Part shown: positions 9,051 to 54,160 of the stretch, piece after piece
Layout: the number at the start of each line of letters is the position of its first letter
How positions within the stretch are numbered: position 1 is the stretch's first letter
Assembly (NCBI GenBank): GCA_965209055.1
Contig: OZ242374.1
Coordinates: forward strand, 1,856,001-1,920,000
Direction of reading: 5' to 3'
From: Acidobacteriota bacterium
GTDB lineage: Bacteria; Acidobacteriota; UBA6911; RPQK01; JAJDTT01
DNA: 64,000 nt
The notes under the pieces: generated by a model
What the model saw: only the letters and a program-made list of their open reading frames with translations
Databases searched by the model: none
Told to the model about the DNA's origin: nothing
Made by a program: the position numbers and the translations under genes

Positions 9051-10007
9051 ATGGTCCGACACCTGCTGAGACGCTCTCTCCAGACCATCCCCGTGGTCTT
9101 CTTCGTCACCGTCGTGGTCTTCACCCTGATGCAACTGGCGCCCGGGGACCCCATGGACATGCTGGTGTTGTCCAATCCCAACGTGACGCCGGAGGAGGTC
9201 GAGCGGTTGCGGGCCGTCTACGGCCTGGACGATCCGATCCATATCCAATACTTCCGCTGGTTGTCCCAGGTCGCTCAGGGGAACCTGGGATATTCCCGCC
9301 TCTACCATCGTCCCATCACCAGCATCCTTCCCCAACGTCTGGCCAACACCCTGGCCCTGACCGGCCTCAGCCTGCTGGTGAGTATCCTCATCGCCATACC
9401 CATCGGGGTCTACAGCGCTCTGCGCCAGTATTCCGTGGCGGACTATCTGCTCTCTCTGGTGGCCTTCGTGGGAATCTCCTTCCCGGTGTTCTGGTCCGGG
9501 ATTCTGGTCATTCTCCTCTTCTCCGTGGTCCTCGGCTGGTTGCCGCCCGGAGGGCATCCCTCCATCGAGCCGGGTCTGGGCTTCTGGGGGCAGGCCCGGT
9601 ACTACGTGGCTCCGGTTCTGGTGCTGAGCCTTTTCAGCACCGCCAGTTGGATGCGCTACATGCGGTCCAGCCTGTTGGAAGTGATCCGCCAGGACTACAT
9701 TCTGACGGCGCGGGCCAAGGGTCTTGCGGGAAGGGTGATCTGGGTGCGCCACGCCCTCCGGAACGCGCTGATTCCCATCGTGACCCTGATCGCCCTCACC
9801 ATTCCCGCCCTGATCGGCGGGGCCGTGGTGACCGAGATCGTCTTCTCCTGGCCCGGGATGGGGAGATTGATCTTCGATTCGCTGATGAACAACGACTACT
9901 ACCTGGCCATGGCCATCTTCCTCATCTTCGGACTGCTGGTGGCCCTGTTCAATCTGTTGGCCGAAGTGGCCTACGCCTTCCTGGACCCCCGGATCCGAAT
10001 GGAGTAA
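9051..10007 (+). CDS. peptide ABC transporter permease (OppB/DppB-like)
   Basis: APGDP, YGLDDP, DYILTARAKGL, HALRNAL, FSWPGMG, LDPRI. Confidence 0.93.
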   Translation: MVRHLLRRSLQTIPVVFFVTVVVFTLMQLAPGDPMDMLVLSNPNVTPEEVERLRAVYGLDDPIHIQYFRWLSQVAQGNLGYSRLYHRPITSILPQRLANTLALTGLSLLVSILIAIPIGVYSALRQYSVADYLLSLVAFVGISFPVFWSGILVILLFSVVLGWLPPGGHPSIEPGLGFWGQARYYVAPVLVLSLFSTASWMRYMRSSLLEVIRQDYILTARAKGLAGRVIWVRHALRNALIPIVTLIALTIPALIGGAVVTEIVFSWPGMGRLIFDSLMNNDYYLAMAIFLIFGLLVALFNLLAEVAYAFLDPRIRME

Positions 10008-23739: not shown

Positions 23740-23815
23740 GCCGCGTAATCCTATCGGCTGAGAATCTCCCGGAAAAGTCCCCAATTCCGGGAAGCACTCC
23801 TGTATTCTGCCCGTC

Positions 23816-25045
23816 ATGCTCCGGCGCTACCTCCGGACGGTCCCCTACCGCAGCCGTCCCGCCCTCTACTACGAGAGCCTCTACAGCATCGGCCGGGGGG
23901 CCTTCGTGGCCCTGCTGCCGCTGAGCTGGGTCGTGCTCAAGACCGTCCTGGACGGGGAACTCTGGCAGTTGACGGTCTTGGGATGCATCTGGGGTTTGTC
24001 GGGGCTGCTGGCTCCCGGATGGGCCTACCTGGGCCGCCTGGCCGGTCTCCAGCGCCTGGTGGTCTGGCCCAACATGGCCGGGGGTCTGGCTCTGGCCGGC
24101 GTCGCGCTGGTATCCGGCGCCAACGCTTTCGTCCTCCTGGTGAGTCTGGCCTATCTGCTTGCCGTACCGACTCGTCTCACGGAGATGAGCCTCTATCGGA
24201 TCTTCTATCCGGACTCCCACCGGTCCCTGGCCGTGGGGTGGCTCAAGGGCATCGCGTTCGTCACGGGCGCATTGGCCACTCTGGCCGGAACCTGGCTCAT
24301 CGATGCCGGAGACGCCCTCTACGGGATCGTCTACGTCGTGGTGGGCGTGCTCCTGATCGGCTCCGCCTGGTGTTACGGACGGATCCGGATCCCGGCCCGC
24401 GTGGAGTCTCTGTCCGACGGTTCCATCCGTTACGCCGCGGCGTTGAGGGAAGGACTCAAAGCCCTGCTCGCCGACCGGAGCTTCCTTCTGTACCAGGGGG
24501 CCTTCTTCTCCACCGGTTGGGGCAACTTCATGTCCATGGTGCTGGTGGCCGAGGTGATGAGGGAGTCCCTCGACGCTCCGGTATGGGCCATGGGCCTGGC
24601 CGTGGCGATCCTGCCGCAGGTGCTCCAGCCCATCTCCTCGCCCCTCTGGGGCCGGTTCCTGGACCGGGTGAATCCCATGCAGGGACGCGCCGTCTTCAGT
24701 TTCTTCATGGCCTCCGTCAACGCGCTCTACTGTTACGGAGGGCTCCAACTGCTGGTCTGGCCCTTCCTGGCGGGCAGCCTGATCCAGGGCCTGACCAACA
24801 GCGGCAACCAGATCGTCTGGACCACCGGTTCTCTCTACTTCGCCCGTCCCCGGCAGGTCGTGCTCTACAACACCGTCCACGTGGCCCTGACCGGCTTCCG
24901 GGGCCTTGCGGCGCCCCTGGTGGGAGCCTGGCTCTTCAGCCGGACCGGCCTCGGCTCCTGGGTCTTCGGCATCTCGTCGATCCTGGGCGTCCTGGGCCTG
25001 ATCTCCATGATCTGGCTCCACCTGAAAGAGAGAGACGCCAATTAG
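23816..25045 (+). CDS. MFS transporter
   Basis: 409 aa with about 12 hydrophobic helices; WGRFLDR loop motif. Confidence 0.78.
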   Translation: MLRRYLRTVPYRSRPALYYESLYSIGRGAFVALLPLSWVVLKTVLDGELWQLTVLGCIWGLSGLLAPGWAYLGRLAGLQRLVVWPNMAGGLALAGVALVSGANAFVLLVSLAYLLAVPTRLTEMSLYRIFYPDSHRSLAVGWLKGIAFVTGALATLAGTWLIDAGDALYGIVYVVVGVLLIGSAWCYGRIRIPARVESLSDGSIRYAAALREGLKALLADRSFLLYQGAFFSTGWGNFMSMVLVAEVMRESLDAPVWAMGLAVAILPQVLQPISSPLWGRFLDRVNPMQGRAVFSFFMASVNALYCYGGLQLLVWPFLAGSLIQGLTNSGNQIVWTTGSLYFARPRQVVLYNTVHVALTGFRGLAAPLVGAWLFSRTGLGSWVFGISSILGVLGLISMIWLHLKERDAN

Positions 25046-25046
25046 C

Positions 25047-25069
25047 GGAGCGGCGGTTTCCAACCGCCG
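25047..25069 (+). repeat. GGAG-hairpin REP-like element
   Basis: GGAG CGGCGGT TTCCA ACCGCCG, 1 nt after the MFS stop codon. Confidence 0.75.
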
Positions 25070-25113
25070 ACTCCCCCGCTGAATCCCACCACGACCTGAT
25101 AGTAAACTGACCC

Positions 25114-27522
25114 ATGAACATGCACCCCTCCCGTCCCGACAGAACGGTCCCCACCCGTCTCCCGGCCCTTCTGATCGCGTGCTGCCTGACGGCGCTCTCC
25201 GGAGCCTGCAATTCCCCCGGCCACGCCCAGAAACCCGCCGGCCCCGTCACCTTCAACCGGGACATCGCCCCCATCGTCTACAAGCGTTGCGCTCCCTGCC
25301 ACCGTCCGGGGCAGGTGGCCCCCTTCAGCCTCCTGAGCTACGAGGACGTCAAGTCGCGGGCGAGCCAGATCGAGGTGGTCACCCGGACCCGCTACATGCC
25401 TCCCTGGCTGCCCGAGTCGGGAAAAGGCCGCTTCGTCGGGAACCGGCGCCTCACCGTCCGGGAGCTGGAGCTGCTCCAGGAATGGCTCCAGGGAGACCTG
25501 CCTCAAGGGGACCCGGCGAACCTTCCCCCTCCCCCCGAATGGCCCCAGGGCTGGCAGTTGGGCGAGCCCGACCTGGTCATCCGGATGCCGCGGACCTACA
25601 CCCTCCCGGCCGACGGACCCGACGTGGTCCGCAACTTCGTGATCCCCAGCCCCGTCGACCGCACCCGCTACGTGAGAGGCGTGGAATTCCGGCCCGGCAA
25701 CGCCCCCATCGTCCACCACGTGGTGATTCTGGTGGACACCACCGGGACCTCCCGCGCCCACGAGGCCAAAGACCCGGAGGCGGGCTACGACGGCATGCTC
25801 TACAACCAGGCCACGAGTCCCGGCGGCCACTTCGAGGGCTGGACGCCGGGCAAGAGCCCCTTTCTGCGGCCCGCGGACATGGCGTGGCGCCTCGACCCCG
25901 GCACGGACGTGGTCTTCCAGCTCCACATGCTGCCCACCGGAAAACCGGAGCCGATTCAATCCTCCCTGGGACTCTTCTTCGCCCGGAAGCCGCCGACCAA
26001 GACGCCCTACATGCTCCGCCTGGGCTCCAAGGTGATCGACATCGAGGCCGGGGAGGCCGACTACAAGATCCGCGACACCTACCGCCTCCCCGTGGATACT
26101 CGGCTCCTGAGCGTCTATCCTCACGCCCACTACCTGGCCCGGGAAATGAAGGGCACCGCCCGGCTGCCCGACGGACGGCTCCGGTGGCTGGTCCATATCC
26201 GGGACTGGGACTTCAACTGGCAGGACGAGTACCGCTACTCTTCCCCCATCTCGTTGCCCGCCGGCACCACCCTGGAGATGGAGTACACCTACGACAACTC
26301 GGCGGAAAACCTGCGAAATCCTCACAGTCCTCCCGAGAGAGTCGTCTACGGGCCCCAATCCTCGGACGAGATGGGGGACCTCTGGTTTCAGGTTTTGGCC
26401 GCCGACGGGAAGGGCTTGGACCGGCTGGTCCGGGACCACGCCCACCGGGAGTTGCTGGCCGACGTGGAGGGCTATCGGAAGCTGGTTCGGGACCATCCCG
26501 AGGACCCCCACTTTCGCGACACGCTGGCCCATCGCTACATCCGGCTCGGGGAAGTCACCAGGGCCATCGGGGAGTGGAAGGAGGCCATCCGCCTGAGCCC
26601 CGAGTTCTGGGGCTACTATTTCAACCTGGGCCACGCCCTCGATCAGATGAAACGGCCGGCCGAAGCCGTGACCTGGTACCGGAAGACGCTGGAGCTGAAG
26701 CCGCGGCAGGTCCGGGCCCACAACAACCTGGCCGTGGCTCTTCAATCCACGGGCAGGCGGCCGGAGGCGATCCGGCATTTCCGGCGGGCGGTCGGGATCG
26801 ATCCCGATTCCATGGAGTCGCACCGGAACCTGGCCGCCGCACTGGCGGAGGAGGGGAACTTCAGGGATGCGGCGATCCACTTTCGCCGGGCTCTGGAGAC
26901 GGGCCCCCCGTCGGTGGAGGTCCACACCGGCCTGGGGCGCGCCCTGGCGGGCCAGAATCGAATGCCGGAGGCGGTCGAGCAGTTCAGGAACGCCCTGCGG
27001 CTCGACGCGAACAGCTTCGACGCCCACAACAATCTGGGGAACCTGCTGGCGGCCGGGGGACGCATGGAGGAGGCCCTGGAGCATTTCCGCAAGGCGGTGG
27101 AGTTGCAGCCGGACTCGGTGGAAGCCCTGGGCAACCTGGGCCTGGCCCTCCGGATGACCGGACGCTTCAATGAGGCCGGCCGCTACCTGGAGGAGGCGGC
27201 CCGCCGCCAGCCCGGATGGCCCGCTCCCCAGGCCGCCTTGGCCTGGATCCTCGCCACCCACCCCGACCCCGCCCGGCGCCGGCCTCAGGACGCGGTCCAA
27301 CTGGGCCGCAGGGTCGTCCGGATGACCCGGGAGCAGGATCCTCGAATGCTGGATGTCCTGGCGGCAGCCTACGCCGCCGCGGGGGAGTTCGATCAAGCCG
27401 TCGCCACGGCCCAAAAGGCGATCCGGCTGGCCGCCACCCGTCCCGGGAACCCGCTGGGACGGTTGCTGCAGGAGCGCCTGATGCTCTACCGTCAGCGCCG
27501 CGCCTACGTCGAAGGTGAATGA
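25114..27522 (+). CDS. lipoprotein: heme-c motif + copper type II (PHM/DBH-like) monooxygenase domains + TPR array
   Basis: Lipobox-like LSGAC; CAPCH..MPPW; IVHHV, QLHM, YPHAHY, DWDFNWQ and DEMG motifs; C-terminal half is TPRs (AHNNLA, SHRNLA, AHNNLG, ALGNLG). Confidence 0.82.
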   Translation: MNMHPSRPDRTVPTRLPALLIACCLTALSGACNSPGHAQKPAGPVTFNRDIAPIVYKRCAPCHRPGQVAPFSLLSYEDVKSRASQIEVVTRTRYMPPWLPESGKGRFVGNRRLTVRELELLQEWLQGDLPQGDPANLPPPPEWPQGWQLGEPDLVIRMPRTYTLPADGPDVVRNFVIPSPVDRTRYVRGVEFRPGNAPIVHHVVILVDTTGTSRAHEAKDPEAGYDGMLYNQATSPGGHFEGWTPGKSPFLRPADMAWRLDPGTDVVFQLHMLPTGKPEPIQSSLGLFFARKPPTKTPYMLRLGSKVIDIEAGEADYKIRDTYRLPVDTRLLSVYPHAHYLAREMKGTARLPDGRLRWLVHIRDWDFNWQDEYRYSSPISLPAGTTLEMEYTYDNSAENLRNPHSPPERVVYGPQSSDEMGDLWFQVLAADGKGLDRLVRDHAHRELLADVEGYRKLVRDHPEDPHFRDTLAHRYIRLGEVTRAIGEWKEAIRLSPEFWGYYFNLGHALDQMKRPAEAVTWYRKTLELKPRQVRAHNNLAVALQSTGRRPEAIRHFRRAVGIDPDSMESHRNLAAALAEEGNFRDAAIHFRRALETGPPSVEVHTGLGRALAGQNRMPEAVEQFRNALRLDANSFDAHNNLGNLLAAGGRMEEALEHFRKAVELQPDSVEALGNLGLALRMTGRFNEAGRYLEEAARRQPGWPAPQAALAWILATHPDPARRRPQDAVQLGRRVVRMTREQDPRMLDVLAAAYAAAGEFDQAVATAQKAIRLAATRPGNPLGRLLQERLMLYRQRRAYVEGE

Positions 27523-27638
27523 AGCGGAAAGAGTAAATCCAAGGGCGGCGGAAAAGGCAGCGAAAAGCGATCCCAACGATCTTTTCGAGGCCGGCCGAGC
27601 CAATCTGGCGCAGTCCTAAGTTTTTTCTTCTGAATTGT

Positions 27639-27667
27639 TTGACTCTCCGAATCGGGTCCTGTAAAAA
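27639..27667 (+). promoter_or_regulatory. putative sigma70 promoter of TonB receptor 1
   Basis: TTGACT-N17-TAAAAA; an equivalent element precedes the paralog. Confidence 0.45.
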
Positions 27668-27767
27668 GACCCCAACAACGACGCTCACCATACGTCTTTT
27701 TCATTGCGAACGGTCGAGACGGCCGGAAGTTCGTAACCGTTCTCGACCTTCCAGGAGGGAACAACTC

Positions 27768-30700
27768 ATGGGCTACAGGAGCAAGACTCTGTGGCTGGCG
27801 ACCGCGTGCCTGGTGCTCGTGGTGCATGCGCTTGCGGCGCCGCTGGCCTACGGACAGGCCGCCACCTTCTCCCGGTTGCTGGGGACCGTCAGGGACCAGA
27901 CCGGAGCGGTGGTGCCTGGGGTGGAGGTCACGGCCACGGCCACGGCCACCAACATTCCGAATATGGCGGTGACCAACGACCGCGGTGACTACGTCATCGA
28001 CAAGTTGATCCCCGGTTTCTATGACATCTCGGCGGAGCTGCCCGGCTTCAAGGTGGCGCGCTCGCTGGGTGTCCGTCTCGAGGTCCAGAGCGTATCCCGC
28101 GTCGACCTCACCATGGAACCGGGAGACATCTCCGAGCAGGTGACGGTCACGGGACAGTCCACCATCATCGACACCGACAATGCCGAGGTGGCGGCGGTCA
28201 TCGAAGAGAAGAAGATCCTGGATCTTCCTCTGGCGGGCCGCGACATGGTGAAGCTGGCCTACCTGACCACGGGCGGCACGCAGGAGCGGCAGGAGATCGG
28301 CTACACCGCCCTCTACGCCTACGGCGGCGGGTATCCCACCTTCAACGGCCTGTATTCGCACTCCAACCAGATCCAGTTGGACGGCTCCAACAACATGGGC
28401 TACATCACGCAGCGGCCCACGGTGCAGCCGACCCCTGAGACGGTGCAGGAGTTCAAGGTGATCACGAACAACTACTCGGCCGAGTACGGCCGCGTGGGCG
28501 GGGCGGTCATCACCATGCTCTCCAAGAGCGGGAGCAACGAGTTCCACGGCCATGCCTGGTACTACTTCCGGGACGAGACTCTGGATGCGAACAACTTCTT
28601 CGCGAACCGGTCCCTGCGGGAGAAGCTGCCGGTGGACTACCACATCGGCGGCGGCTCCATCGGCGGTCCCATCCTCAAGGACAAGACCTTTTTCCACGGC
28701 CACTACGAGAAGTTCGTCGACGACCTGAACGTGGCCGGCTTCGCCACGGTGCCTTCCACGGCCATCGTCCAGGGCGACTTCTCCGGCAGTGGTGCCAAGG
28801 GGCCCATCAATCAGCTCTACAATCCGTTCGACTTCACCGGAAGCCGGGCCGAAGGAACGGGCAAGCGGGCGCCTTTCGCCAACAACCAGATCCCGGCCAG
28901 CATGCAGGGGGCGGTCTACAGGAAGGTGATGGAGATGATGCCCCCTCCGGCGCCCAACCAGTCGGGCGTGACCGCCAACAACTACGCCTATCCCCGGGCC
29001 ACCAACACCCGGATCGACAAGTACTCGTTCCGCGTCGATCACCAGTTCGCCAACGACGACAACCTCTTCGGACGTTACAGTTGGCAGCGATCGCCCACGT
29101 TCGCGCATTCCGGGGATCTGGGAATCCCCGGCGCCACCCAGGACGGAATCTACCGGTATTTCTATGACCGGTCCCGCGGCTACCAGATCGGCATCAGTTG
29201 GGTGAACCCCATCGGATCCAACCTGGTCACCGAGTACACCCAGTCCATCTGGAAGTTCACCTGGCTCATCGGACGGCCCATCGAGGACACCAACTGGCCT
29301 CGGGTGCTGGGTTACGACGACGGACACAACTGGGAGGTGTATCTGCCCAACGGCAACCGCGGCGGCGCCAACATGCCCCGCCTGCAGCCCGACGGCTACA
29401 CCCGTTATCGCGGCGGCAGGGAATCGCCGCTGGCGGACTGGGGCCTGGGCTTCAAGTACACGGCCTCCTGGAGAAAGGGAAACCACTACCTGAAGTTCGG
29501 TTTCGAGCACGTCCGGAACCTGGATGTCCACTACTACTACATTCCGGAGTACGGAAACGGGTCCGACACCTTCAACGGCTATGCCACGGGCCAGCTCCAG
29601 TACGGTCCCGACGGAAGCTTTTCCGGGGTCACCTATGGCGAGGGCTGGGCCGACTTCCTGCTGGGGACGCCCTCCGCGGTCAGCGGCAACGTCCTCGGCA
29701 TCGGCGAGAACACGGGCCACTTCAACCAGAGCCACTACAACTGGTTCATCAACGACGACTGGAAGGTGAGTCCCGACTTGACCCTGAACATCGGCCTTCG
29801 CTGGGAGCAGCCGCGGCCGCCGTACTACGAGGGCCATCCCAGCGGGTCGTACACCACCGACTACTACTACTGTGCGTACGACTACAGCCGGGTCACCAAC
29901 CGCATCGATCCGGTGGAAATGATGCCCAAGGGCTTCGACATCGCCCAGTGGCAGGGGCCCGACGGTATTGCGGTTCCCTTCGAAAACCTGCCTCACCGCG
30001 GTTGCTACAAGGCCAAGTGGCGCTACTTCGCGCCCCGGTTCGGACTGGCCTGGCGCATCTTCGGGACCAACCGGACCGTGCTTCGCGCCGGCGCCGGCCT
30101 GACCTACGACCAGGAGTTCGGCATCCTCAGAGCCCGGACCATGAGACCGAATGCCGGTGTCATCAGTTTGAGCGCAACCCGGGGGTACGAGTTCCCGGAA
30201 CTCATCACCGGGAAACGGATCGACCTTCCCCGTCAGAGGGGTAACGTCAATGCGGATGGAGTGCTGGTCGACAGCAACTACTACGTCTGCTACTTCTCCG
30301 AGTTGGACTGGCAGGAGGGGCAGGTCTACTCCTACAACCTGGCGATCCAGCACGAGCTGTTCCAGGGGACCAAGTGGGAGGTGGCTTACGTGGGCAACCA
30401 GGGGCGCCACATCCGCGAGATCAGCCCCTTCAACGTGGCCATGCCGGAAGGGTACGTGGTTCCTCTCGTGGCGGGAGGCACTGCCACGCTGACCAGCGAC
30501 ACCATCACGGCCGGTCCCCGGGAGTGGATTCCGGCCGAGAATCGCACGGAAACCAGCCGCGCCTGGACGGGACAGTTGGCCCGGCGGCCCTATCCCCAGG
30601 TCATTCCCAACACCATGCTGCGGCCGCACGGGAGCATGAACTACAACTCCCTGCAGACCAAGTTGGAGCGCCGGTTCAGCGACGGTGTGGCCATTTCCAT

Positions 30701-31415
30701 GGGCTACACCTGGTCCAAGGCCATGGCCATGAACTACAACGGCAACTGGGGCGACTGGTCCGGATCGCGCGACTATGAGCGCCACGCCCTGCGTGCGCCC
30801 ATGCAGCACGACCGCTCCAGCACCTACTACATGTCCGCCATCTGGGTGCTGCCCTTCTTCCAGAACGCGGGGGGACTGACCAAGTCCCTGCTGGGCGGCT
30901 GGGAGCTCACCGGCATCACCACCCTCACCACGGGAGCCCCGTTCCGGGTCTTCTACGGCACCGACCTGTGGAACCAGGGCCGCCGGTCGCGCCGTTACAC
31001 CGACCGCATCAAGGACGGGAATCTCGGCGGCGGAGCCACGGTGGAGCGGTGGTACGACACCAGCGCCTTCACGGCCCCCGGCATCGAGAACCCCGACGTG
31101 CCGGGTCAGCGGATCATGGACACCTCCCTTTGCGGCGGAGCCAGCTTCTGTCACGAATCGGCGAGGCGGGCCCTGGGCAACGGCGCCCCTTATCCGCTGC
31201 GGTACGATGGAGTTCCCGTCGTGGATCTCTCGCTGCACAAGAATTTCGCTTTCGGAGAGGAAAAGACCTTCGACGTCCGGGCGGACTTCTTCAACGCCTT
31301 CAACCACGCCATCTTCAATGCTCCCAACGGGAACCATTCCTCTTCGGCCGTGGGCCGGGTGACCTCGGCGGCGACGGCGCGGCAGATTCAGATCGGGTTC
31401 CGCTTCTCGTTCTAG
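27768..31415 (+). CDS. TonB-dependent receptor with N-terminal carboxypeptidase-regulatory-like domain (paralog 1)
   Basis: RBS AGGAGG, signal peptide, GTVRDQTGAVVPGV, VQEFKVITNNYSAEYGR, KSGSNEFHG, C-terminal RQIQIGFRFSF. Confidence 0.93.
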   Translation: MGYRSKTLWLATACLVLVVHALAAPLAYGQAATFSRLLGTVRDQTGAVVPGVEVTATATATNIPNMAVTNDRGDYVIDKLIPGFYDISAELPGFKVARSLGVRLEVQSVSRVDLTMEPGDISEQVTVTGQSTIIDTDNAEVAAVIEEKKILDLPLAGRDMVKLAYLTTGGTQERQEIGYTALYAYGGGYPTFNGLYSHSNQIQLDGSNNMGYITQRPTVQPTPETVQEFKVITNNYSAEYGRVGGAVITMLSKSGSNEFHGHAWYYFRDETLDANNFFANRSLREKLPVDYHIGGGSIGGPILKDKTFFHGHYEKFVDDLNVAGFATVPSTAIVQGDFSGSGAKGPINQLYNPFDFTGSRAEGTGKRAPFANNQIPASMQGAVYRKVMEMMPPPAPNQSGVTANNYAYPRATNTRIDKYSFRVDHQFANDDNLFGRYSWQRSPTFAHSGDLGIPGATQDGIYRYFYDRSRGYQIGISWVNPIGSNLVTEYTQSIWKFTWLIGRPIEDTNWPRVLGYDDGHNWEVYLPNGNRGGANMPRLQPDGYTRYRGGRESPLADWGLGFKYTASWRKGNHYLKFGFEHVRNLDVHYYYIPEYGNGSDTFNGYATGQLQYGPDGSFSGVTYGEGWADFLLGTPSAVSGNVLGIGENTGHFNQSHYNWFINDDWKVSPDLTLNIGLRWEQPRPPYYEGHPSGSYTTDYYYCAYDYSRVTNRIDPVEMMPKGFDIAQWQGPDGIAVPFENLPHRGCYKAKWRYFAPRFGLAWRIFGTNRTVLRAGAGLTYDQEFGILRARTMRPNAGVISLSATRGYEFPELITGKRIDLPRQRGNVNADGVLVDSNYYVCYFSELDWQEGQVYSYNLAIQHELFQGTKWEVAYVGNQGRHIREISPFNVAMPEGYVVPLVAGGTATLTSDTITAGPREWIPAENRTETSRAWTGQLARRPYPQVIPNTMLRPHGSMNYNSLQTKLERRFSDGVAISMGYTWSKAMAMNYNGNWGDWSGSRDYERHALRAPMQHDRSSTYYMSAIWVLPFFQNAGGLTKSLLGGWELTGITTLTTGAPFRVFYGTDLWNQGRRSRRYTDRIKDGNLGGGATVERWYDTSAFTAPGIENPDVPGQRIMDTSLCGGASFCHESARRALGNGAPYPLRYDGVPVVDLSLHKNFAFGEEKTFDVRADFFNAFNHAIFNAPNGNHSSSAVGRVTSAATARQIQIGFRFSF

Positions 31416-31948: not shown

Positions 31949-34900
31949 ATGAGCTACAAGAACAAGTCTCTATGGCTGGCGACGGCGGCTTTGGTGCTCG
32001 TCGTGCATGCGCTGGCAGCGCCGCTGGCCTATGGACAGGCCGCCACCTTCTCCCGGTTGCTGGGAACCGTCAGGGACCAGACCGGAGCGGTGGTGCCGGG
32101 AGTGGAAGTCACGGCTACGGCCACGGCGACCAACATCCCGCACATGGCGGTGACCAACGACCGCGGTGACTACGTCATCGACAAGTTGATCCCCGGTTTC
32201 TATGACATCTCGGCAGAGCTGCCCGGCTTCAAGGTGGCGCGCTCGCTGGGTGTCCGTCTGGAGGTCCAGACCGTATCCCGCGTCGACCTCACCATGGAGC
32301 CCGGTGACATCTCCGAGCAGGTGACGGTCACGGGACAGTCCACCATCATCGACACCGACAATGCCGAGGTGGCAGCGGTCATCGAAGAGAAGAAGATCCT
32401 GGATCTTCCTCTGGCGGGCCGCGACATGGTGAAACTGGCCTACCTGACCACGGGCGGCACGCAGGAACGGCAGGAGATCGGCTACTCTACGCTGTACGCA
32501 TACGGCGGCGGGTATCCCACCTTCAACGGCCTGTATTCGCACTCCAACCAGATCCAGTTGGACGGCTCCAACAACATGGGCTACATCACGCAGCGGCCCA
32601 CGGTGCAGCCGACCCCTGAGACGGTGCAGGAGTTCAAGGTGATCACCAACAACTACTCGGCCGAGTACGGCCGCGTGGGCGGGGCGGTCATCACGATGTT
32701 GTCCAAGAGCGGGAGCAACGAGTTCCACGGCCATGCCTGGTACTACTTCCGGGACGAGGCTCTGGATGCGAACAACTTTTTCGCCAACCGAGCTCTGCGG
32801 GAGAAGCTGCCGGTCGACTACCACATCGGCGGCGGTTCCATTGGCGGTCCCATCCTCAAGGATAAGACCTTCTTCCACGGCCACTATGAGAAGTTCATCG
32901 ACAACCTGAATGTGGCGGGATTCGCTACCGCGCCTTCCACGGCCATCACCCAGGGCGACTTTTCGGGATCGGGCGCCAAGGGCCCCATCAACCAGCTCTA
33001 CAATCCGTTCGACTTCACCGGAAGCCGCGACGATGCAACTGGAATGCGGGCAGCTTTCGCCAACAACCAGATCCCGGCCAGCATGCAGGGGGCGGTCTAC
33101 AAGAAGATGATGGAGCTGATGCCTCCTCCGGCCCCCAACCAGCCGGACCTCACCAGCAACTACGCCTATCCTCGTGCGACCAATACCAAGATCGACAAGT
33201 ACTCGTTCCGCGTCGACCACCAGTTCGGCAACGACGACAACATCTTCGGTCGTTACAGCTGGCAGCGGTCGCCTGCCTTTACCCATACCGGCAGTTGGGG
33301 AGTCCCCGGCGCCGAACAGGACGGCATCTACCGCCAGTTCCAGGACCGGTCCCGCGGCTACCAGATCGGCATCAGTTGGGTGAACCCCATCGGATCCAAC
33401 CTGGTCACCGAGTACACCCAGTCCATCTGGAAGTTCACGTGGCTCATCTCACGGCCCATCGAGGACACCAACTGGCCTCGGGTTCTGGGATTCGACGACG
33501 GCCAGAACTGGGAAGTGTATCTGCCCAACGGCAACCGCGGCGGCGCCAACATGCCCCGCATGAGGCCTGACGGTTACACGGGCTGGGGCGGCGCCACCGA
33601 ATCGCCTCTGGCCGACTGGGGTTTGGGCTTCAAGTACACGGCCTCCTGGAGAAAGGGAGACCATTACCTGAAGTTCGGCGTCGAGCACGTCCGGAATCTG
33701 GATGTGCACTACTACTGGATTCCCCCCTATGCGGCCGGTGGAGACACCTTCAACGGGTTCGGTACGGGCCAGCTCCAGTACAACGAGGACGGAAGCTTCG
33801 CCGGCGTCACCTATGGCGAGGGCTGGGCGGACTTCATGCTGGGAACGCCCTCTTCGGTCTTCGGCAACGTGCTGGGAATCGGCGAGAACACCGGCCACTT
33901 CAACCAGAGCCACTACAACTGGTTCATCAACGACGACTGGAAGGTGGGTCCGAACCTGACCATAAACATGGGTCTTCGCTGGGAGCAGCCGCGGCCGCCC
34001 TATTACGAGGGCCACCCCAATGGGTCGTACACCAAGGACTACTACTACTGCGCGTATGACTACACCAAGGCCAAGAACCGGATCGATCCGGTGGAGATGA
34101 TGCCTGCGGGTTTCGACATCGCCCAGTGGCAGGGTGACGTCGGCATCGCCATCCCATTCGAAAACCTGCCTCACAGGGGTTGTTACAAGGCCAAGTGGCG
34201 CTATTTCGCGCCCCGGTTCGGACTGGCATGGCGGATGTTCGGGACCAACCGGACGGTGCTCCGCGCCGGCGCCGGCCTGACCTATGACCAGGAGTTCGGT
34301 ATTCTCCGCGCCCGGGTCATGCGGCCCAACGTCGGTGTCATCAACCTGCCGGCCGTGCGAGGAGAGGCTGTTCCTTCCCTCATCAGCGGCACCCGGCTCA
34401 ACCTGCCCCGCGATACCGGCGCCATCAACGCGGACGGTATTCGGGTCAACAGCAACTACCGCACCTGCTACTTCTCAGAGTTGGATTGGCAGGAAGGCCA
34501 AGTCTATTCCTACAACCTCATGATTCAGCACGAGCTGTTCCAGGGGACCAAGTGGGAGATCGGCTACGTCGGCAACCAGGGGCGCCACATTCGTGAGATC
34601 AGCCCCTTCAACGTCGCCATGCCGGAAGGCTATGTTGTGCCACTGATCGGTGGCGGCTCCGCCACACTGACCAGCGACCCCATCACGGCTGGACCTCGCG
34701 AGTGGATTCCTGCCGAAACACGTGGCGAGGTTGGTCGTGAGTGGAATGGGCAGTTGGCCCGGCGGCCTTATCCCCAGGTCATTCCCAACACCATGCTGCG
34801 GCCGCACGGGAGCATGAACTACAACTCCCTGCAGACCAAGTTGGAGCGGCGCTTCAGCGACGGTTTGGCCCTTTCCATGGGCTACACCTGGTCCAAGGCC

Positions 34901-35593
34901 ATGGCCATGAACTACAACGGCAACTGGGGAGACTGGTCCGGATCGCGCGACTATGAGCGCCACGCCCTGCGTGCGCCCATGCAGCACGACCGCTCCAGCA
35001 CCTACTACATGTCTGCCATCTGGGAGTTGCCCTTCTTCAAGAACGCTGGTGGGCTCACCAAGTCCCTGCTGGGCGGTTGGGAACTCACCGGTATCACCAC
35101 ACTCACCACGGGAGCCCCATTCCGGGTCTTCTACGGCACCGATCTGTGGAACCAGGGCGGTCGTTCGCGCCGGTACACCGACCGGATCAAGGACGGGAAT
35201 CTCGGCGGCGGAGCCACGGTGGAGCGGTGGTATGACACCAGCGCCTTCACGGCCCCTGGTGTCGAGAACCCGGACGTGCCGGGTCAGCGGATCATGGACC
35301 GGTCGCTTTGCGGCGGCGCCCCCACCTGCCATGAGGCAGCCAGGCGCTCGCTGGGTAACGGTGCCCCCTATCCGCTACGGTATGACGGAGTACCCGTCGT
35401 GGATCTCTCGCTGCACAAGAATTTCGCCCTCGGCGAAGACAAGACCTTCGACGTCCGGGCGGACTTCTTCAACGCCTTCAACCACGCCATCTTCAACGCG
35501 CCCAACGGCAACCATGCCAGTGGCGGCGTTGGCCGGGTGACCTCGGCGGCGACAGCGCGTCAGATTCAGATTGGGTTCCGCTTCTCGTTCTAG
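31949..35593 (+). CDS. TonB-dependent receptor (paralog 2)
   Basis: Colinear and largely identical to 27768..31415; RBS GAGGAGG; same C-terminal motif. Confidence 0.93.
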   Translation: MSYKNKSLWLATAALVLVVHALAAPLAYGQAATFSRLLGTVRDQTGAVVPGVEVTATATATNIPHMAVTNDRGDYVIDKLIPGFYDISAELPGFKVARSLGVRLEVQTVSRVDLTMEPGDISEQVTVTGQSTIIDTDNAEVAAVIEEKKILDLPLAGRDMVKLAYLTTGGTQERQEIGYSTLYAYGGGYPTFNGLYSHSNQIQLDGSNNMGYITQRPTVQPTPETVQEFKVITNNYSAEYGRVGGAVITMLSKSGSNEFHGHAWYYFRDEALDANNFFANRALREKLPVDYHIGGGSIGGPILKDKTFFHGHYEKFIDNLNVAGFATAPSTAITQGDFSGSGAKGPINQLYNPFDFTGSRDDATGMRAAFANNQIPASMQGAVYKKMMELMPPPAPNQPDLTSNYAYPRATNTKIDKYSFRVDHQFGNDDNIFGRYSWQRSPAFTHTGSWGVPGAEQDGIYRQFQDRSRGYQIGISWVNPIGSNLVTEYTQSIWKFTWLISRPIEDTNWPRVLGFDDGQNWEVYLPNGNRGGANMPRMRPDGYTGWGGATESPLADWGLGFKYTASWRKGDHYLKFGVEHVRNLDVHYYWIPPYAAGGDTFNGFGTGQLQYNEDGSFAGVTYGEGWADFMLGTPSSVFGNVLGIGENTGHFNQSHYNWFINDDWKVGPNLTINMGLRWEQPRPPYYEGHPNGSYTKDYYYCAYDYTKAKNRIDPVEMMPAGFDIAQWQGDVGIAIPFENLPHRGCYKAKWRYFAPRFGLAWRMFGTNRTVLRAGAGLTYDQEFGILRARVMRPNVGVINLPAVRGEAVPSLISGTRLNLPRDTGAINADGIRVNSNYRTCYFSELDWQEGQVYSYNLMIQHELFQGTKWEIGYVGNQGRHIREISPFNVAMPEGYVVPLIGGGSATLTSDPITAGPREWIPAETRGEVGREWNGQLARRPYPQVIPNTMLRPHGSMNYNSLQTKLERRFSDGLALSMGYTWSKAMAMNYNGNWGDWSGSRDYERHALRAPMQHDRSSTYYMSAIWELPFFKNAGGLTKSLLGGWELTGITTLTTGAPFRVFYGTDLWNQGGRSRRYTDRIKDGNLGGGATVERWYDTSAFTAPGVENPDVPGQRIMDRSLCGGAPTCHEAARRSLGNGAPYPLRYDGVPVVDLSLHKNFALGEDKTFDVRADFFNAFNHAIFNAPNGNHASGGVGRVTSAATARQIQIGFRFSF

Positions 35594-48964: not shown

Positions 48965-49023
48965 AGGTTAGCAGCCAATGGCGAAACTCGCCAAGCCGTT
49001 CAATCCTCTCCAGCACCGTCTGT

Positions 49024-50655
49024 TCACTCTTTCCTCTTTCCTCCTTCCACCACCACGTACTCCCGATCCGCCTCCAGTTTCTCCAGAACCTGGCGTTGTC
49101 CCCGGCTCCAACGCACCTCGATCCGCTGGACCTCGCCGGCCGTCCCCAACCCGAAGTGAAGCCGCGGGTCGTCGGACGACTGGTACCCCGACCCGGCCCG
49201 CACCTCCCGGATCTGAGTCGAATCCCCGGCGATGAGCGTGACCCGGGTTCCCACGGCGTCCCGATTGGATTCCGTCCCCTCCAATCTCAGGCGCAGCCAG
49301 TGGCCCTTGCTCCCCTCGTTGCGGTAAAGGGACAGCCCCCCGTCCATGTTGGAGACGGCCACGTCCACGTCCCCGTCATTGTCGAAGTCGGCAATTGCGG
49401 CGCCGCGGCTGGAATCAGCCTGGGAAAGCCCCAATGCCTCATCTGAAGCCATCTCCCGGAAACGGCCGTTGCCCAGGTTTCGAAACAGGAGGCTCCTCTG
49501 CCGGAACCGGGTCCCCGTTGGCCGGGTATCCACTTGCGGAAAGACGTGCCCGTTGGCCACGAAAAGGTCCTCCCAGCCGTCGTGGTCGTAGTCGAAGAAG
49601 TGGGCGCTCCACCCCAGGAAGCGCAGACTGGGCAGGCTCAAACCGGTGGGGCGGGTCACGTCACGGAAACGGCCGCCTCCCAGGTTCCGGTACAGGGTGT
49701 TGTAGTCGGCGGAGAAGTTGGTGACGTAGACGTCGAATCGTCCGTCCCGATCGTAGTCGCCAAAGGCGATCCCCATGCCGGCCTGAGCCTGCCCGTCCTC
49801 GTTGAAGGCCACGGCCGCCACGACTCCCCGTTCCTCGAAGGTTCCGTCTCCCCGATTGCGGAAGAGAAAGTTGGCCATGGAGTCGTTGGCCACATAGAGG
49901 TCGCTGGCGCCGTCGCCGTCGTAGTCGCACCAGACGGCGCCCATCCCGTAGGAAGCCGGAGCCTCCATCCCCGCCGCCTTGGTGGCTTCCCGGAAGGTGC
50001 CGTCGCCGTTGCTGAGGTAGAAGGTGTCCCGGGTCGCCGGAAGCCCCCCCGGCCCACAGTGGACCTGGACTCCGCGGTACTGGCAATCGGGCGATGCGGC
50101 GGGCGGATTCTCGTGGTCGAACTCCACGTAGTTGGCCACGTAGAGGTCCAGCCACCCGTCCCCGTTGGCGTCGGCGAAGGCGGCGCTGGAACTCCAGGAG
50201 GAGTCCCCCACCCCCGCTTCCCGGGTCACGTCCCGGAAGGTGCCGTCGCCGTTGTTCCGGTACAGGAGGTTGGGACCGTAGTTGCAGACGTAGAGGTCGG
50301 ACCAGCCGTCGTTGTCGTAGTCGGCGATGGTCACTCCCATGCCCCAATGGCGCCCTCCCACGCCCGCCTCGGAGGTTACCGGCCGGAAGGTGCCGTCCCC
50401 CTGGTTGCGGTAGAGGGCATTGGAGACGCTGCGTTTCCCGGTTCCCAGCTCCTCCCAGAGGCCCCCGTTGACGGCATACAGATCGAGCCAGCCGTCCCGG
50501 TCGTAGTCGATCCAACCGACTCCGCTGCCCACCGTCTCCAGGATGTGGTCCTTGGCGCTGCCGCCGCCCCGGTGCCGGAAGTTCAGCCCCGCTTCACGGC
50601 TCATCTCCGTGAAGTGAACTCCGCCGGAAAGCAGTAGCAGGAACGCCATGATCAT
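49024..50655 (-). CDS. CRTAC1-family / FG-GAP + ASPIC/UnbV protein
   Basis: ILETVGSG, repeated DYDxDGxxDLYV and LYRNxGDGTF, SRGAAIADFDNDGD, SNRDAVG, LHFGLG. Confidence 0.88.
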   Translation of the reverse strand: MIMAFLLLLSGGVHFTEMSREAGLNFRHRGGGSAKDHILETVGSGVGWIDYDRDGWLDLYAVNGGLWEELGTGKRSVSNALYRNQGDGTFRPVTSEAGVGGRHWGMGVTIADYDNDGWSDLYVCNYGPNLLYRNNGDGTFRDVTREAGVGDSSWSSSAAFADANGDGWLDLYVANYVEFDHENPPAASPDCQYRGVQVHCGPGGLPATRDTFYLSNGDGTFREATKAAGMEAPASYGMGAVWCDYDGDGASDLYVANDSMANFLFRNRGDGTFEERGVVAAVAFNEDGQAQAGMGIAFGDYDRDGRFDVYVTNFSADYNTLYRNLGGGRFRDVTRPTGLSLPSLRFLGWSAHFFDYDHDGWEDLFVANGHVFPQVDTRPTGTRFRQRSLLFRNLGNGRFREMASDEALGLSQADSSRGAAIADFDNDGDVDVAVSNMDGGLSLYRNEGSKGHWLRLRLEGTESNRDAVGTRVTLIAGDSTQIREVRAGSGYQSSDDPRLHFGLGTAGEVQRIEVRWSRGQRQVLEKLEADREYVVVEGGKRKE

Positions 50656-50721
50656 CTCCGCCAGTCTAGCAAGATGAGGAGGCCGCTCGCGTACGCTGGC
50701 GCATCGTGTAAAAATTGAAGC

Positions 50722-51312
50722 GTGAAGACTTCGCGACGGCGCCAATCCGGCGTGGCGGCTTGGACCCTGAGCCTCTTTATCTTCTGGGGCTACGGTTCGG
50801 GTCCTTCGGAGTTGAACCTGACGACCCTGTCAGGCGAGCGGGTGGACCCGTTCGCCGCCGTAGACTCGACTGGCGTCTTCTTGTTCATGCGCAGCGACTG
50901 TCCCATCTCCAACCGGTATGCGCCCGAACTTCGGCGGCTGCATGAGGCATTCTCGCCCCGGGGAGTGCGGTTCTGGTTCGTCTACGTGGACCCCCGGGAA
51001 GAGCCCGAGTCCATCCGGCGGCACGCGGAGGAATATCAAATTCCGGGAGAGATCCTTCGTGATTCCCACCACGACCTGGTGCGCCGCACGGGCGCCCGGG
51101 TCACTCCGGAGGCGGCCGTCTTCGCCGCCGGCGGACGGCTCGTCTACCGTGGGCGAATCGACGACCGGTACACCGATTTCGGCAAGGCGCGGGCCAAACC
51201 CAATCGCCGCGATTTGAAGCTGGCGCTGGAGGCTGTGCTCAACGGGGAATCGGTCGCGGAACCGGAGACGCAGGCCGTGGGGTGCTTCATCGCGGACCTG
51301 GCCGGCAGATAA
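50722..51312 (+). CDS. redoxin/thioredoxin-like domain protein
   Basis: DCPISNRY, GARVTPEAAV, YRGRIDD, AVGCFI. Confidence 0.8.
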   Translation: MKTSRRRQSGVAAWTLSLFIFWGYGSGPSELNLTTLSGERVDPFAAVDSTGVFLFMRSDCPISNRYAPELRRLHEAFSPRGVRFWFVYVDPREEPESIRRHAEEYQIPGEILRDSHHDLVRRTGARVTPEAAVFAAGGRLVYRGRIDDRYTDFGKARAKPNRRDLKLALEAVLNGESVAEPETQAVGCFIADLAGR

Positions 51313-51331: not shown

Positions 51332-54160
51332 ATGCCAGTTCGGGGGCTTGCGGTCTTTTGTGTCCTTTGGTCCGGGTTCATGGGAATTTCGCCGGCCAGG
51401 GACGGCGCCATCCGCCATTCCGGCTTCGAGGACTTCAGCCAGGGGACCCTGGGGAACGCAGGGGCCAACGTCTACGTTTCCAGGAAGGGGACCGTCCAGG
51501 TCATCAACCAGTGGGATCTGAACCGGGACGGACACGTGGACCTGGTGCTGAGCAACACCCACGACAACATGAGCGTGGTTGACGCTCTCGTCTACTGGGG
51601 CAGCGCCGACGGTCCCCGTTCCCTTCTCCCCGAACTCTGGAGGGAACGGCCCCTGGCGCAGGTGGTCTACGGCCTGATGGACCGGACCGATCACGTGACC
51701 CGGCTCCCCTCCTTCGGCGGCGGCCGGTCGGCGGTTGCGGATCTGAACCGGGACGGATTCCCCGATCTGGTCTTCTGCAACTACATCCACAACTATCCGG
51801 GCGTCCGGACGGCGTACGTCTACTGGGGGAGCCGGGACGGGTATTCCCGCGTCGGGCGCACCGAACTGCCCACCCGGTGGGCGGCGGGCGTCGTGGCCCG
51901 GGACCTCAACTCCGACGGATACATGGACCTGGTCTTCGCCAATCAGGGGGTGGAAGCGGGAGCTGAGAAGATCTCGCCCAAGGTGGATCTCTCCTCCTAC
52001 ATCTACTGGGGCAGCGCCAACGGTTTCGATCCCGACCGCCCGGGACTGGTTCCCACCCGCGGCGCCCGGGACGTGGCCGGCGGCGACGTGAACGGGGACG
52101 GGGACCCTGACCTGATCTTCATCAACAACAGCCCTCAATCGAAAGGGATCCAGATCTTTTTTGGCCGCCAGGGCGTCTACGCCGCCGACCGCTCGTGGGA
52201 GGCGGAGACGGCTCCTCCCGGGAGCATCGGGACCGGCGACCTGGATCGGGACGGTTTCGACGACGTGGTGGTCACGGTGTCGGGTGAGGGCGCCCGGGAC
52301 GGCAACGTCCTCCTGTTCCTGGGAGGGAAGGACGGACCGGTCCCATCTCCCAGCCAGACCCTTCCGGCCATCGCTCCCACCGGCTCGGACATCGCCGATC
52401 TGAACGGGGACGGATACCTGGATCTGGCCGTGTCCAACTCCTCGAACGGGGAGCCGCTGCCCGAGTCCTACGTCTACTGGGGCGGGGCAGAGGGCTTCTC
52501 GGCGCAACTGCGGTCCCAGCTCCCGACCCTGGCCCCGGCCGACGTGGCTTCGGGCGACCTGAACCGGGACGGCCACCTCGACCTGGTCTTCGCCAACGCC
52601 CATGACGGTCAGTCCGCCGACGTGCCCTCGTACGTCTACTGGGGAAGTTCCACCGGCTTCGCGCCGTATATGCGGACCGAACTGCAGGGGTTCGGCGGCA
52701 ACAGCGTCAACCTGGCCGACCTGAACCTCGACGGAAACCTGGATGTGGTGCTGGTGAACCGGTGGAGCGGCAAGCACGCCGGCCAGGTCCTGAACAACAT
52801 CTACTGGGGCAACCCACACCACTACTATTCCACGGCGTCCCGCACGGCCCTGCCCGGACACGGCGCCTACGCCGTCGCCGTCGCCGACCTCAACGACGAC
52901 GGCTTCAACGATCTGGTCCTCACCAACTCCTACGTCGGGTACAGTTGGATCTATTGGGGCAGCCGGGACGGCTACTCCCCCGGGAACCGCCAGGAGTTGG
53001 CCGCCGCCAACGCCCATGGGGTCAGCGCCGCCGATCTGAACCGGGACGGCTACCTGGAGCTGGTCTTCACCCACGGCCGGGGCCGAAAGCTGGGGACCGT
53101 CTACTGGGGCGGAGAAGAGGGCTACTCCGACGCCCGCCGGACCTCGCTCCCCCTGAAGAACCAGAGGTGCACCAACAACCGGGTGGCGGACCTGAACCGG
53201 GACGGCCATCTGGACCTGCTCTTCCCCGGGAGCTGGTACGGCATCTACGAGATCTTCTGGGGCGCCGAGGACGGCTATTCGCCGGAGCGGAGCTGGAGCC
53301 GGGTGCTGCCGGCCGGCAACGTGGAACTGGCCGACCTGAATTCGGACGGAAACCTGGATTTCATGCTGGTGGGGAGCTTCGACCCCGAGACCCGGACCTA
53401 CACCGGCAACAGCTACCTGCTCTGGGGGACCGCCGAGGGGGTTCCCACGCTCGAGAACAAGGTGGAGCTGGAGGGTCACTCGCCCATCGAGTGCGGCATC
53501 GCCGACCTGAACCGGGACGGACACCTGGACCTGGTATTGTCCAACTACATGTCGGGCCGCACCCGCACCCTGCCGGTGTTCATCTACTGGGGCGGGGAAG
53601 GAGGCGCCTACAGCCGGACCAACCGGACCGATCTTCCCGCCTATTCCTCCTCCGCCATCCAGACGGTGGACCTGAACCGGGATGGCTGGCCCGAGATCGT
53701 GGTCCACAATCACATGAAAGACGGTGACCACTCCATCAACACTTACATCTATTGGAACGGCCCTGAAGGGTTCCACCGGGACCGGAAGACCGAAATCCCC
53801 AGCTTCGGTCCCCACTACAGCCAGATGACCGATCCGGGGGACATCTACACCCGGCGCTTGGAGGAGGAATACCTCTCGCCGCCGCTGGAACTACCCGGAC
53901 GCGGCGGCGTCCGGCTGATCTGGGAGGGGGAGGAGCCCCACGGAGCCCGACTGCAGTTCCAGGTCCGCACCGCGTCCAGCCGCGACGGCCTGGAATCCGC
54001 CGAGTGGACCGGGCCCTCCGGCGCCGGCTCCTTCTACCGGGAGTCCGGAACCGGGATCGCCGGCCTGGATGGAACCCGCCGCTGGGCCCAGTACCGGGCC
54101 GTCTTCACCTCTCCGGCCGGCGGTGTCTGGCCCATCCTGTCGGCCGTGGAATTGCGCTAG
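51332..54160 (+). CDS. secreted FG-GAP/VCBS repeat protein
   Basis: 14 DLNxDGxxD-type repeats, most followed by (I/V)YWG. Confidence 0.87.
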   Translation: MPVRGLAVFCVLWSGFMGISPARDGAIRHSGFEDFSQGTLGNAGANVYVSRKGTVQVINQWDLNRDGHVDLVLSNTHDNMSVVDALVYWGSADGPRSLLPELWRERPLAQVVYGLMDRTDHVTRLPSFGGGRSAVADLNRDGFPDLVFCNYIHNYPGVRTAYVYWGSRDGYSRVGRTELPTRWAAGVVARDLNSDGYMDLVFANQGVEAGAEKISPKVDLSSYIYWGSANGFDPDRPGLVPTRGARDVAGGDVNGDGDPDLIFINNSPQSKGIQIFFGRQGVYAADRSWEAETAPPGSIGTGDLDRDGFDDVVVTVSGEGARDGNVLLFLGGKDGPVPSPSQTLPAIAPTGSDIADLNGDGYLDLAVSNSSNGEPLPESYVYWGGAEGFSAQLRSQLPTLAPADVASGDLNRDGHLDLVFANAHDGQSADVPSYVYWGSSTGFAPYMRTELQGFGGNSVNLADLNLDGNLDVVLVNRWSGKHAGQVLNNIYWGNPHHYYSTASRTALPGHGAYAVAVADLNDDGFNDLVLTNSYVGYSWIYWGSRDGYSPGNRQELAAANAHGVSAADLNRDGYLELVFTHGRGRKLGTVYWGGEEGYSDARRTSLPLKNQRCTNNRVADLNRDGHLDLLFPGSWYGIYEIFWGAEDGYSPERSWSRVLPAGNVELADLNSDGNLDFMLVGSFDPETRTYTGNSYLLWGTAEGVPTLENKVELEGHSPIECGIADLNRDGHLDLVLSNYMSGRTRTLPVFIYWGGEGGAYSRTNRTDLPAYSSSAIQTVDLNRDGWPEIVVHNHMKDGDHSINTYIYWNGPEGFHRDRKTEIPSFGPHYSQMTDPGDIYTRRLEEEYLSPPLELPGRGGVRLIWEGEEPHGARLQFQVRTASSRDGLESAEWTGPSGAGSFYRESGTGIAGLDGTRRWAQYRAVFTSPAGGVWPILSAVELR

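Follow-up and report, generated by a model that had tools for sequence, protein, structure and literature searches.

The window analyzed in this study comprises 64,000 nucleotides from an Acidobacteriota bacterium (contig OZ242374.1, positions 1,856,001 to 1,920,000), and the gene located at positions 25114..27522 of this window encodes a protein of 802 amino acids, P0001, which is probably a periplasmic redox enzyme of the two-copper type represented by peptidylglycine alpha-hydroxylating monooxygenase (PHM), wired by a c-type heme and working with a thioredoxin-fold subunit placed over its cleft. The domain anatomy and fold of P0001, the conservation of its ligand positions, the size of its family, and both the genetic linkage and the predicted docking of the partner are established. 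The initial annotation of this gene, made from the letters of the DNA, had described a lipoprotein in which a heme-c domain, a copper monooxygenase and tetratricopeptide repeats (TPRs) are fused.

The reading frame of P0001 is open and begins with ATG, and the guanine-cytosine (GC) content at its codon positions (GC3 0.88, GC2 0.48) identifies the plus strand as the coding strand. An antisense open reading frame (ORF) spanning the whole enzyme gene (25042-27603, minus strand, 853 amino acids) was rejected as a gene and regarded as a shadow ORF of the high-GC sequence. Likewise, a 'conserved neighbour' family of approximately 400 amino acids (cluster 4, without Pfam matches) turned out to consist of antisense shadow ORFs of the enzyme gene, representing a gene-calling artefact. 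All motifs listed in the initial annotation (LSGAC, CAPCH, MPPW, HH, H, HxH, M, and the TPR array) were found in P0001, those of the catalytic part being C59-A-P-C62-H63, M95-P-P-W, I-V-H201-H202-V, Q-L-H271-M, P-H337-A-H339, and D-E-M420-G. The TPR character of the C-terminus was corroborated by Pfam matches covering approximately residues 460-790, with TPR_2 matching in six stretches (E 8.8e-49). The N-terminus is basic and hydrophobic, residues 1-37 were modeled with low confidence, and LSGAC (Cys31) and LIAC (Cys23) each fit a loose lipobox pattern, which is also present in 129 of 248 homologues; the proposed export with a lipoprotein-type signal is plausible at the sequence level.

Conservation of the candidate metal ligands was counted over 274 homologous domains, namely the query and 273 domains from 264 proteins. 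The candidate heme residues C59, C62, and H63 were each kept in 272 of the 274 domains, the two exceptions to the CxxCH motif being gaps, and M95 was kept in 273. In the AlphaFold2 (AF2) model, segment 47-126 is helical (helices 47-62, 76-81, 83-92, and 115-126), and M95, which belongs to an invariant MPPW motif, is the likely sixth heme ligand. Among the candidate ligands of the first copper site (CuH), H201 was kept in 272, H202 in all 274, and H271 in 273 domains, the histidines being borne by model strands 200-208 and 265-272 of the first sandwich; the corresponding values for the second site (CuM) were 273 for H337, 274 for H339, and 273 for M420. The ligand candidates are, moreover, invariant in the alignments A1 and A2. 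Since the homologues are typically only about 45-57% identical to P0001, the retention of this motif pattern in 272 to 274 of 274 domains is not a matter of chance.

The ligands of PHM are given as H107/H108/H172 and H242/H244/M314 in PMC12164859, as well as in the titles of PDB entries. Going by these positions, the two proteins agree in the types and the order of their ligands (HH...H, HxH...M) and resemble each other in spacing, i.e., 1, 64, 70, 2, and 70 in PHM and 1, 69, 66, 2, and 81 in P0001 (H-H, H, HxH, M), where H201/H202/H271 are equated with H107/H108/H172 by order and spacing only. The earlier claim that all six candidate copper ligands occur in the right order is thereby supported, both by the parallel spacing and by the conservation of these positions in the family.

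Structure prediction led to the same family of enzymes. The catalytic part of P0001 (residues 1-460) was folded with AF2 using alignment A1 (46 sequences), which resulted in a model with a predicted local distance difference test score (pLDDT) of 87.4 and a predicted template modeling score (pTM) of 0.82, in which a short helical domain (47-126) precedes two beta-sandwiches (154-290 and 299-429). Comparison of this model with the PDB by means of Foldseek yielded exclusively rat PHM or human DBH chains at the listed ranks 1-31. The best match was 3mll (E 8.2e-15, template modeling (TM) score 0.67 as normalised on PHM, with 286 aligned columns in a chain of 304 residues), and the DBH chain 4zel_A was matched with E 4.3e-12, whereas the next match in the ranking, at rank 32, dropped to E 3.4e-5 and a TM score of 0.12. 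The PHM/DBH-like fold of P0001, as assumed in the initial annotation, is therefore upheld, and P0001 has the two-beta-sandwich fold in common with PHM, the catalytic core of PAM (PDB 1phm, 3mll).

As deduced from the sequences of related loci, a thioredoxin-fold protein that had been missed in the initial annotation is a conserved partner of this enzyme. A hidden Markov model (HMM) built from the partners in related loci matched one place in the window (E 2.4e-74), where the partner gene is located 24.3 kb downstream of the enzyme gene. To describe gene neighborhoods, ORFs were called and clustered in the best 79 related loci, a set in which relatives of the query are overrepresented. The HMM detected the partner near the enzyme in 31 of these 79 loci, always on the same strand and at a distance of 3-1268 bp from the catalytic domain, with 27 partners lying upstream and four downstream. 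Gene offsets were counted in the 69 loci in which the gene caller found the enzyme; the partner accounted for 19 of 127 genes at offset 1 and for none at any other offset. In locus L053, where the partner gene precedes the enzyme gene, the HMM hit it twice in different frames (9282-9965), a split that could reflect a frameshift or an assembly error. Furthermore, 97 longer proteins contain the partner domain at E ≤ 1e-10, and 80 of them are fusions with the heme-copper domain, the redoxin part being N-terminal in 65 and C-terminal in 15 cases. Nine of the other 17 are fused to FG-GAP/UnbV_ASPIC domains.

Members of the partner family are approximately 190 amino acids long and feature the motifs DCPISNRYAP and GC(Y/F)I, represented in the window by DCPISNRYAP (Cys60) and a C-terminal GCF (Cys188). 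Both Cys60, which is part of a CPxS motif, and Cys188 are invariant in alignment A3. The Pfam families AhpC-TSA (E 9.9e-10) and Redoxin were matched above their cut-offs, and no NCBIfam model reached its cut-off for this protein. The model of the partner (pLDDT 89.6) was closest in Foldseek to the uncharacterised thioredoxin-like proteins 2ywi, 2cvb, and 3u5r (E ~1e-12; for 2ywi_B, E 1.1e-12, TM scores 0.70/0.72, and 28% identity), followed by oxidoreductases of the ResA/DsbE type (ResA chains, E ~1e-7). The partner has the thioredoxin fold in common with these extracytoplasmic proteins, both the uncharacterised ones and the thiol-disulfide oxidoreductases of the ResA/DsbE/TlpA type, but differs in having CPxS in place of CxxC, a second invariant cysteine near the C-terminus, and a genetic tie to a heme-copper enzyme.

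The complex of the catalytic domain from the window (alignment A2) with residues 28-196 of the partner (alignment A3) was predicted in three runs. The interface score ipSAE reached 0.80 in all three runs, compared to 0.00 for the best of three controls; among solved complexes, 116 of 157 attain the mark applied to this score, compared to 2 of 215 mismatched pairs, these benchmark counts being a rough guide only, because custom alignments were used in the prediction. The runs agreed in at least 90% of the contacts, with a partner pLDDT of at least 88. On the partner side, the predicted interface is formed by D59-C60-P61, N64-P68, and G187-C188-F189, i.e., by the segments bearing both invariant cysteines. 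On the enzyme side, it involves residues 70-71 and 80-94 of the heme domain (P0001 numbering) as well as the copper domain residues 274-277 (P274-K277, following H271), Y340 (following H339), 366/368, 400-405, and S417 (preceding M420), all of which belong to conserved surface motifs that otherwise have no explanation. The prediction supports binding of the partner over the catalytic cleft.

These results are consistent with a three-module periplasmic enzyme, which is probably anchored to a lipid. The first module would be a c cytochrome of the class-I type, with heme bound covalently at C59xxC62H63 and Met95 as the likely sixth ligand, the second a two-beta-sandwich core of the PHM/DBH type with a putatively full ligand set for two separate copper ions (candidate sites H201/H202/H271 and H337/H339/M420), and the third the C-terminal TPR array. 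The metal content, the O2 chemistry, the direction of electron flow, the substrate, and the role of the TPRs are inferred. In the most likely mechanism, the periplasmic respiratory pool would supply electrons one at a time via the fused heme, which would replace ascorbate; these electrons would then reduce the His3 copper before passing to the His2Met copper, where O2 would be activated to hydroxylate or oxidise a periplasmic substrate. The TPRs may, as proposed initially, recruit this substrate. According to the complex prediction, the partner spans the cleft that separates the heme domain from the two copper domains, where it could act as a redox relay, a copper or heme maturation factor, a gate, or even as the substrate. 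Entry of electrons via the heme is suggested by the near-universal fusion of both modules, by the general lack of ascorbate in bacteria, and by the existence of heme-tethered copper enzymes. In cytochrome-fused copper nitrite reductases, for example, a tethered c-type heme wires the copper domain to the periplasmic electron pool; these enzymes, built as cupredoxin trimers, perform other chemistry than that proposed for P0001 and serve as an analogy only.

Compared to PHM, P0001 is distinguished by its bacterial origin and periplasmic location, its fused cytochrome c domain, the TPRs, and the thioredoxin-fold partner, and ascorbate is probably not its electron donor. The second known relative by fold, DBH or tyramine beta-hydroxylase (PDB 4zel), also has a core joined to accessory domains, but is eukaryotic and ascorbate-dependent. 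Its accessory domains, as named in PMC12164859, are a DOMON and a dimerisation domain, as opposed to the cytochrome c domain and the TPRs of P0001.

Regarding the initial impression of a singular fusion protein, the database searches led to a different conclusion, since P0001 belongs to a very large family. A word-indexed protein search with P0001 resulted in 7,990 matches at E ≤ 1e-3 among 8,000 scored candidates, and an exhaustive search of cluster representatives at 50% identity yielded 16,396 matches at E ≤ 1e-3, a number that fell to 9,935 with a threshold of 1e-10 and to 3,331 with one of 1e-30. In species genomes, at least 594 of at least 605 pattern matches were confirmed. Among the 120 matches listed, 114 featured TPR Pfam domains, five featured a calcium-binding EF-hand instead (P0012, P0014, P0015, P0017, and P0018), and one, P0088 with 472 amino acids, had no appended domain. 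Of 265 proteins, 13 contain the catalytic domain as a tandem pair or triplet. A doubled heme-copper module within one chain was observed in P0006-P0011 (1072-1277 amino acids) and also in the five members of the EF-hand subgroup, which lack TPRs.

The homologues carry source names such as 'tetratricopeptide repeat protein' or 'mono/diheme cytochrome c family protein', most of them being 'TPR protein'. An atlas search returned only clusters of P0001's own family, named 'c-type cytochrome family protein', 'Thiol-disulfide isomerase family protein', or hypothetical, with Cu2_monoox_C annotated on 11-16% of the cluster members. Because the sequences are already present in databases and a few of them are labeled with Cu2_monoox_C, the family is best described as unnamed, not as unseen. 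According to the record labels of the best 79 loci, 53 were of the Acidobacteriota type, 14 were assigned to Gemmatimonadota, five to Planctomycetota, three to Latescibacterota, and one each to Verrucomicrobia and Sumerlaeia; locus L001 (97% identity) is labeled Candidatus Aminicenantes. The two remaining labels, Heliobacteriaceae (L058) and Bifidobacteriaceae (L065), stand apart from those of the 77 other loci and could result from mislabeled bins. For the family as a whole, we tentatively consider it possible, at clearly lower confidence than the assignment of P0001 itself, that its members are PHM-type monooxygenases powered by the respiratory chain, with cytochrome c in place of ascorbate, a dedicated thioredoxin-fold cap over the active-site cleft, client selection by TPRs or EF-hands, and periplasmic hydroxylation, possibly with peptides or proteins as its targets, occurring in Acidobacteriota, Gemmatimonadota, Planctomycetota, Latescibacterota, and other phyla.

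Several observations weigh against the assignment of P0001 as a heme-c-wired two-copper enzyme of the PHM type. At the sequence level, the similarity to PHM is not significant (approximately 16% identity); a phmmer search of residues 1-460 against the PDB gave no match, and neither the whole-domain profile A2 nor the second-sandwich profile A4 retrieved a PHM or DBH chain from the PDB at E ≤ 10. These profile searches matched only heme motifs (5c2v and 4rlr, E ~0.1), in addition to chance matches to Rho GTPases and ribosomal uS4. In P0001, the Pfam models Cu2_monoox_C (residues 331-420, E 0.24, 11.3 bits against a curated cut-off of 23) and Cytochrome_CBB3 (residues 51-100, E 0.15, 12.9 versus 27 bits) remained below threshold, and the model of the N-terminal PHM domain (Cu2_monooxygen) was matched in none of the 32 family members searched at E ≤ 1. 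In favor of the assignment, each of the two sub-threshold models matched 29 of these 32 members at E ≤ 1, with best values of 4.8e-6 for Cu2_monoox_C and 1e-4 for Cytochrome_CBB3. No NCBIfam family matched the catalytic part, the whole protein matched only TPR families below their cut-offs, and no model of Pfam or NCBIfam covers the catalytic part.

Further points on the same side concern the substrate, the partner, and the source of the data. Going by the motifs around its HxH and Met, the carboxylate-binding Arg240 of PHM may correspond to Tyr335 of P0001, which would argue against peptidyl-glycine as a substrate. This position is a tyrosine in 203 of the 274 domains. For PHM, PMC12164859 names Arg240, Tyr318, and Asn316 as substrate anchor residues. 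The active site of the partner is CxxS, not CxxC (alignment A3), which makes its role as a simple thioredoxin-like two-electron donor doubtful. Finally, all 79 related loci originate from metagenome-assembled genomes.

Among the other explanations considered, the closest one retains the heme-copper redox enzyme with a PHM fold and replaces its chemistry: instead of hydroxylating C-H bonds, the enzyme would transfer electrons from cytochrome c to an acceptor, be it O2, peroxide, nitrite, or NO, or would act as a copper-dependent thiol oxidase or disulfide relay with the partner as its substrate. Such a function would fit the two invariant cysteines of the partner, which the prediction places in the interface at the cleft, the obligate pairing of enzyme and partner indicated by fusion and adjacency, the binding of nitrite, azide, CO, and peroxide-type ligands to PHM copper (according to PDB entry titles), and the variable remaining neighborhood, which lacks a conserved candidate for a substrate gene. 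We nevertheless rate it as unlikely, because the complete PHM ligand set is kept, including the methionine, whose counterpart Met314 is essential for PHM catalysis according to PMC12164859, and because the appended TPRs, or EF-hands in 5 of the 120 homologues listed, suggest client recognition or regulation and not a simple oxidase; the present data do not tell the chemistries apart. Very improbable, by comparison, is a non-catalytic role, in which the PHM-like sandwiches would, in the manner of other jelly-roll proteins, be a mere binding module and the protein a TPR scaffold or a cytochrome lacking copper chemistry. The public names, 'tetratricopeptide repeat protein' or 'cytochrome c family protein', and the insignificant sequence similarity to PHM would be in line with it, but near-absolute conservation of exactly six PHM-type ligand positions at about 50% identity is hard to explain without metal sites, and the fold match is specific to PHM and DBH.

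The initial annotation had also placed the enzyme in an import-and-oxygenate module, flanked by a transporter of the major facilitator superfamily (MFS) and two TonB receptors. In such a module, the barrels would import a compound, the enzyme would oxygenate it, and the MFS protein would carry it onward. The MFS gene (MFS_1, E 9.2e-10), the enzyme gene, and two barrel genes (OMP_b-brl_4/CarboxypepD_reg matches, E 1e-174 and 7e-175) are indeed co-directional, with gaps of 68, 116, and 533 bp, and the barrel family occurred within 10 kb in 29 of the 79 loci, being more common beside the enzyme than farther away (10/127, 6/112, 5/100, 3/94, 2/81, 2/65, and 0/50 genes at offsets 1 to 7). Nonetheless, an operon of this kind is decidedly improbable. 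The barrel family is abundant, and the offset counts compare positions within loci, not genome-wide; the enzyme had a barrel gene as its immediate neighbor in no more than 10 of the 69 loci in which it was called, the association between barrels and enzyme being loose, and the MFS gene cluster recurred only in L001-L003, the three closest relatives. No Plug domain was reported in the two barrel proteins at E ≤ 0.01 (Pfam), and they had no NCBIfam matches; 'TonB receptor' is, therefore, a likeness and not a demonstrated membership, leaving the MFS and barrel genes as the part of the described surroundings that stands. In L029, L033, and L077, the enzyme-partner pair is surrounded by sulfatase, PhyH, and enolase-superfamily genes. 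This variable context suggests that the pair is a portable module and gives the import-and-oxygenate idea little support. The positions of the features described are compiled in Table 1.

Table 1. Coordinates of the enzyme gene, its modules, the partner gene, and surrounding genes within the window.
Feature	Position	Strand	Basis
Whole enzyme gene (P0001, 802 aa)	25114..27522	+	signal/lipobox, cytochrome c domain, PHM/DBH-like two-domain copper core, TPR array
Signal peptide with lipobox-like LSGAC (Cys31) or alternative LIAC (Cys23)	25114..25206	+	sequence
Small helical c-type cytochrome domain, ~residues 44-130, C59xxC62H63 and M95-P-P-W	25243..25503	+	model helices, family Pfam matches, conservation
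First beta-sandwich of PHM-like core, ~residues 150-290, H201, H202, H271 (candidate CuH site)	25561..25983	+	Foldseek, strands, invariance
Second beta-sandwich, ~residues 295-431, H337, H339, M420 (candidate CuM site)	25996..26406	+	Foldseek, Cu2_monoox_C, invariance
C-terminal TPR array, ~residues 460-802	26491..27519	+	Pfam TPR_2 E 8.8e-49, TPR_1 E 8e-46, others
Partner protein, thioredoxin fold (AhpC/TSA-Redoxin-like), 196 aa	50722..51312	+	hmmsearch E 2.4e-74, Pfam, fold, adjacency/fusions, predicted complex
MFS-type transporter upstream of enzyme	23816..25045	+	Pfam MFS_1 E 9.2e-10
Outer-membrane barrel protein 1 (CarboxypepD_reg + OMP_b-brl_4)	27639..31415	+	Pfam
Outer-membrane barrel protein 2, tandem duplicate	31949..35593	+	Pfam
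TPR protein near partner gene	46476-47861	-	
Sulfite-oxidase-like molybdoenzyme near partner gene	47846-48964	-	
FG-GAP / UnbV_ASPIC protein adjoining partner gene	49024..50745	-	Pfam
FG-GAP repeat protein, opposite flank of the partner gene	51332..54160	+	Pfam

The two barrel proteins are 89% identical over 1,215 residues, and as the alignment to its twin begins at residue 44, the true start of barrel protein 1 is likely to be near Met44. Identical terminator-like hairpins were observed inside both barrel genes on the minus strand; a scan of the region from 21.5 to 36.5 kb for promoters and terminators revealed nothing above shuffled expectation. Divergent from the MFS gene, a protein of 426 amino acids with three tandem RidA/L-PSP (Endoribonuclease L-PSP) domains is encoded at 22537-23817 on the minus strand (E 2.4e-85, three stretches). 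A glycolate-oxidase-like pair is located at 38430-42191 on the minus strand, consisting of an FAD-linked oxidase of 832 amino acids (FAD_binding_4 in two stretches and FAD-oxidase_C) followed by an Fe-S/CCG-domain protein. Around the partner gene, the composition of the region 46476-54160, together with the redoxin-FG-GAP/UnbV_ASPIC fusions, hints at a wider functional network; proteins of the FG-GAP/UnbV_ASPIC type were also found near the enzyme in 16 of the 79 loci.

PHM and DBH, which animals employ in making hormones, are textbook copper enzymes that depend on ascorbate. The core of P0001 is a known one, and what is new is its wiring by a fused cytochrome c, its obligate partner, and its phylogenetic realm. 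Full-text literature searches, whose coverage leaves subscription journals outside, retrieved no description of a heme-c/PHM-like family from bacteria. A table in a 2020 review (PMC7435645) places PHM and DBM among the cuproproteins of eukaryotes only. Our results indicate that thousands of proteins named only 'TPR protein' hide a predicted metalloenzyme. If active, this enzyme would provide a natural 'self-reducing' model for the long-debated electron transfer between the copper sites of PHM, would add a new type of oxygenation chemistry to the periplasm of phyla that are abundant in soil and sediment, and would be a candidate for an ascorbate-free hydroxylating or amidating biocatalyst. If PHM-type hydroxylation in bacteria proves true, two-copper monooxygenase chemistry would not be a eukaryotic invention.

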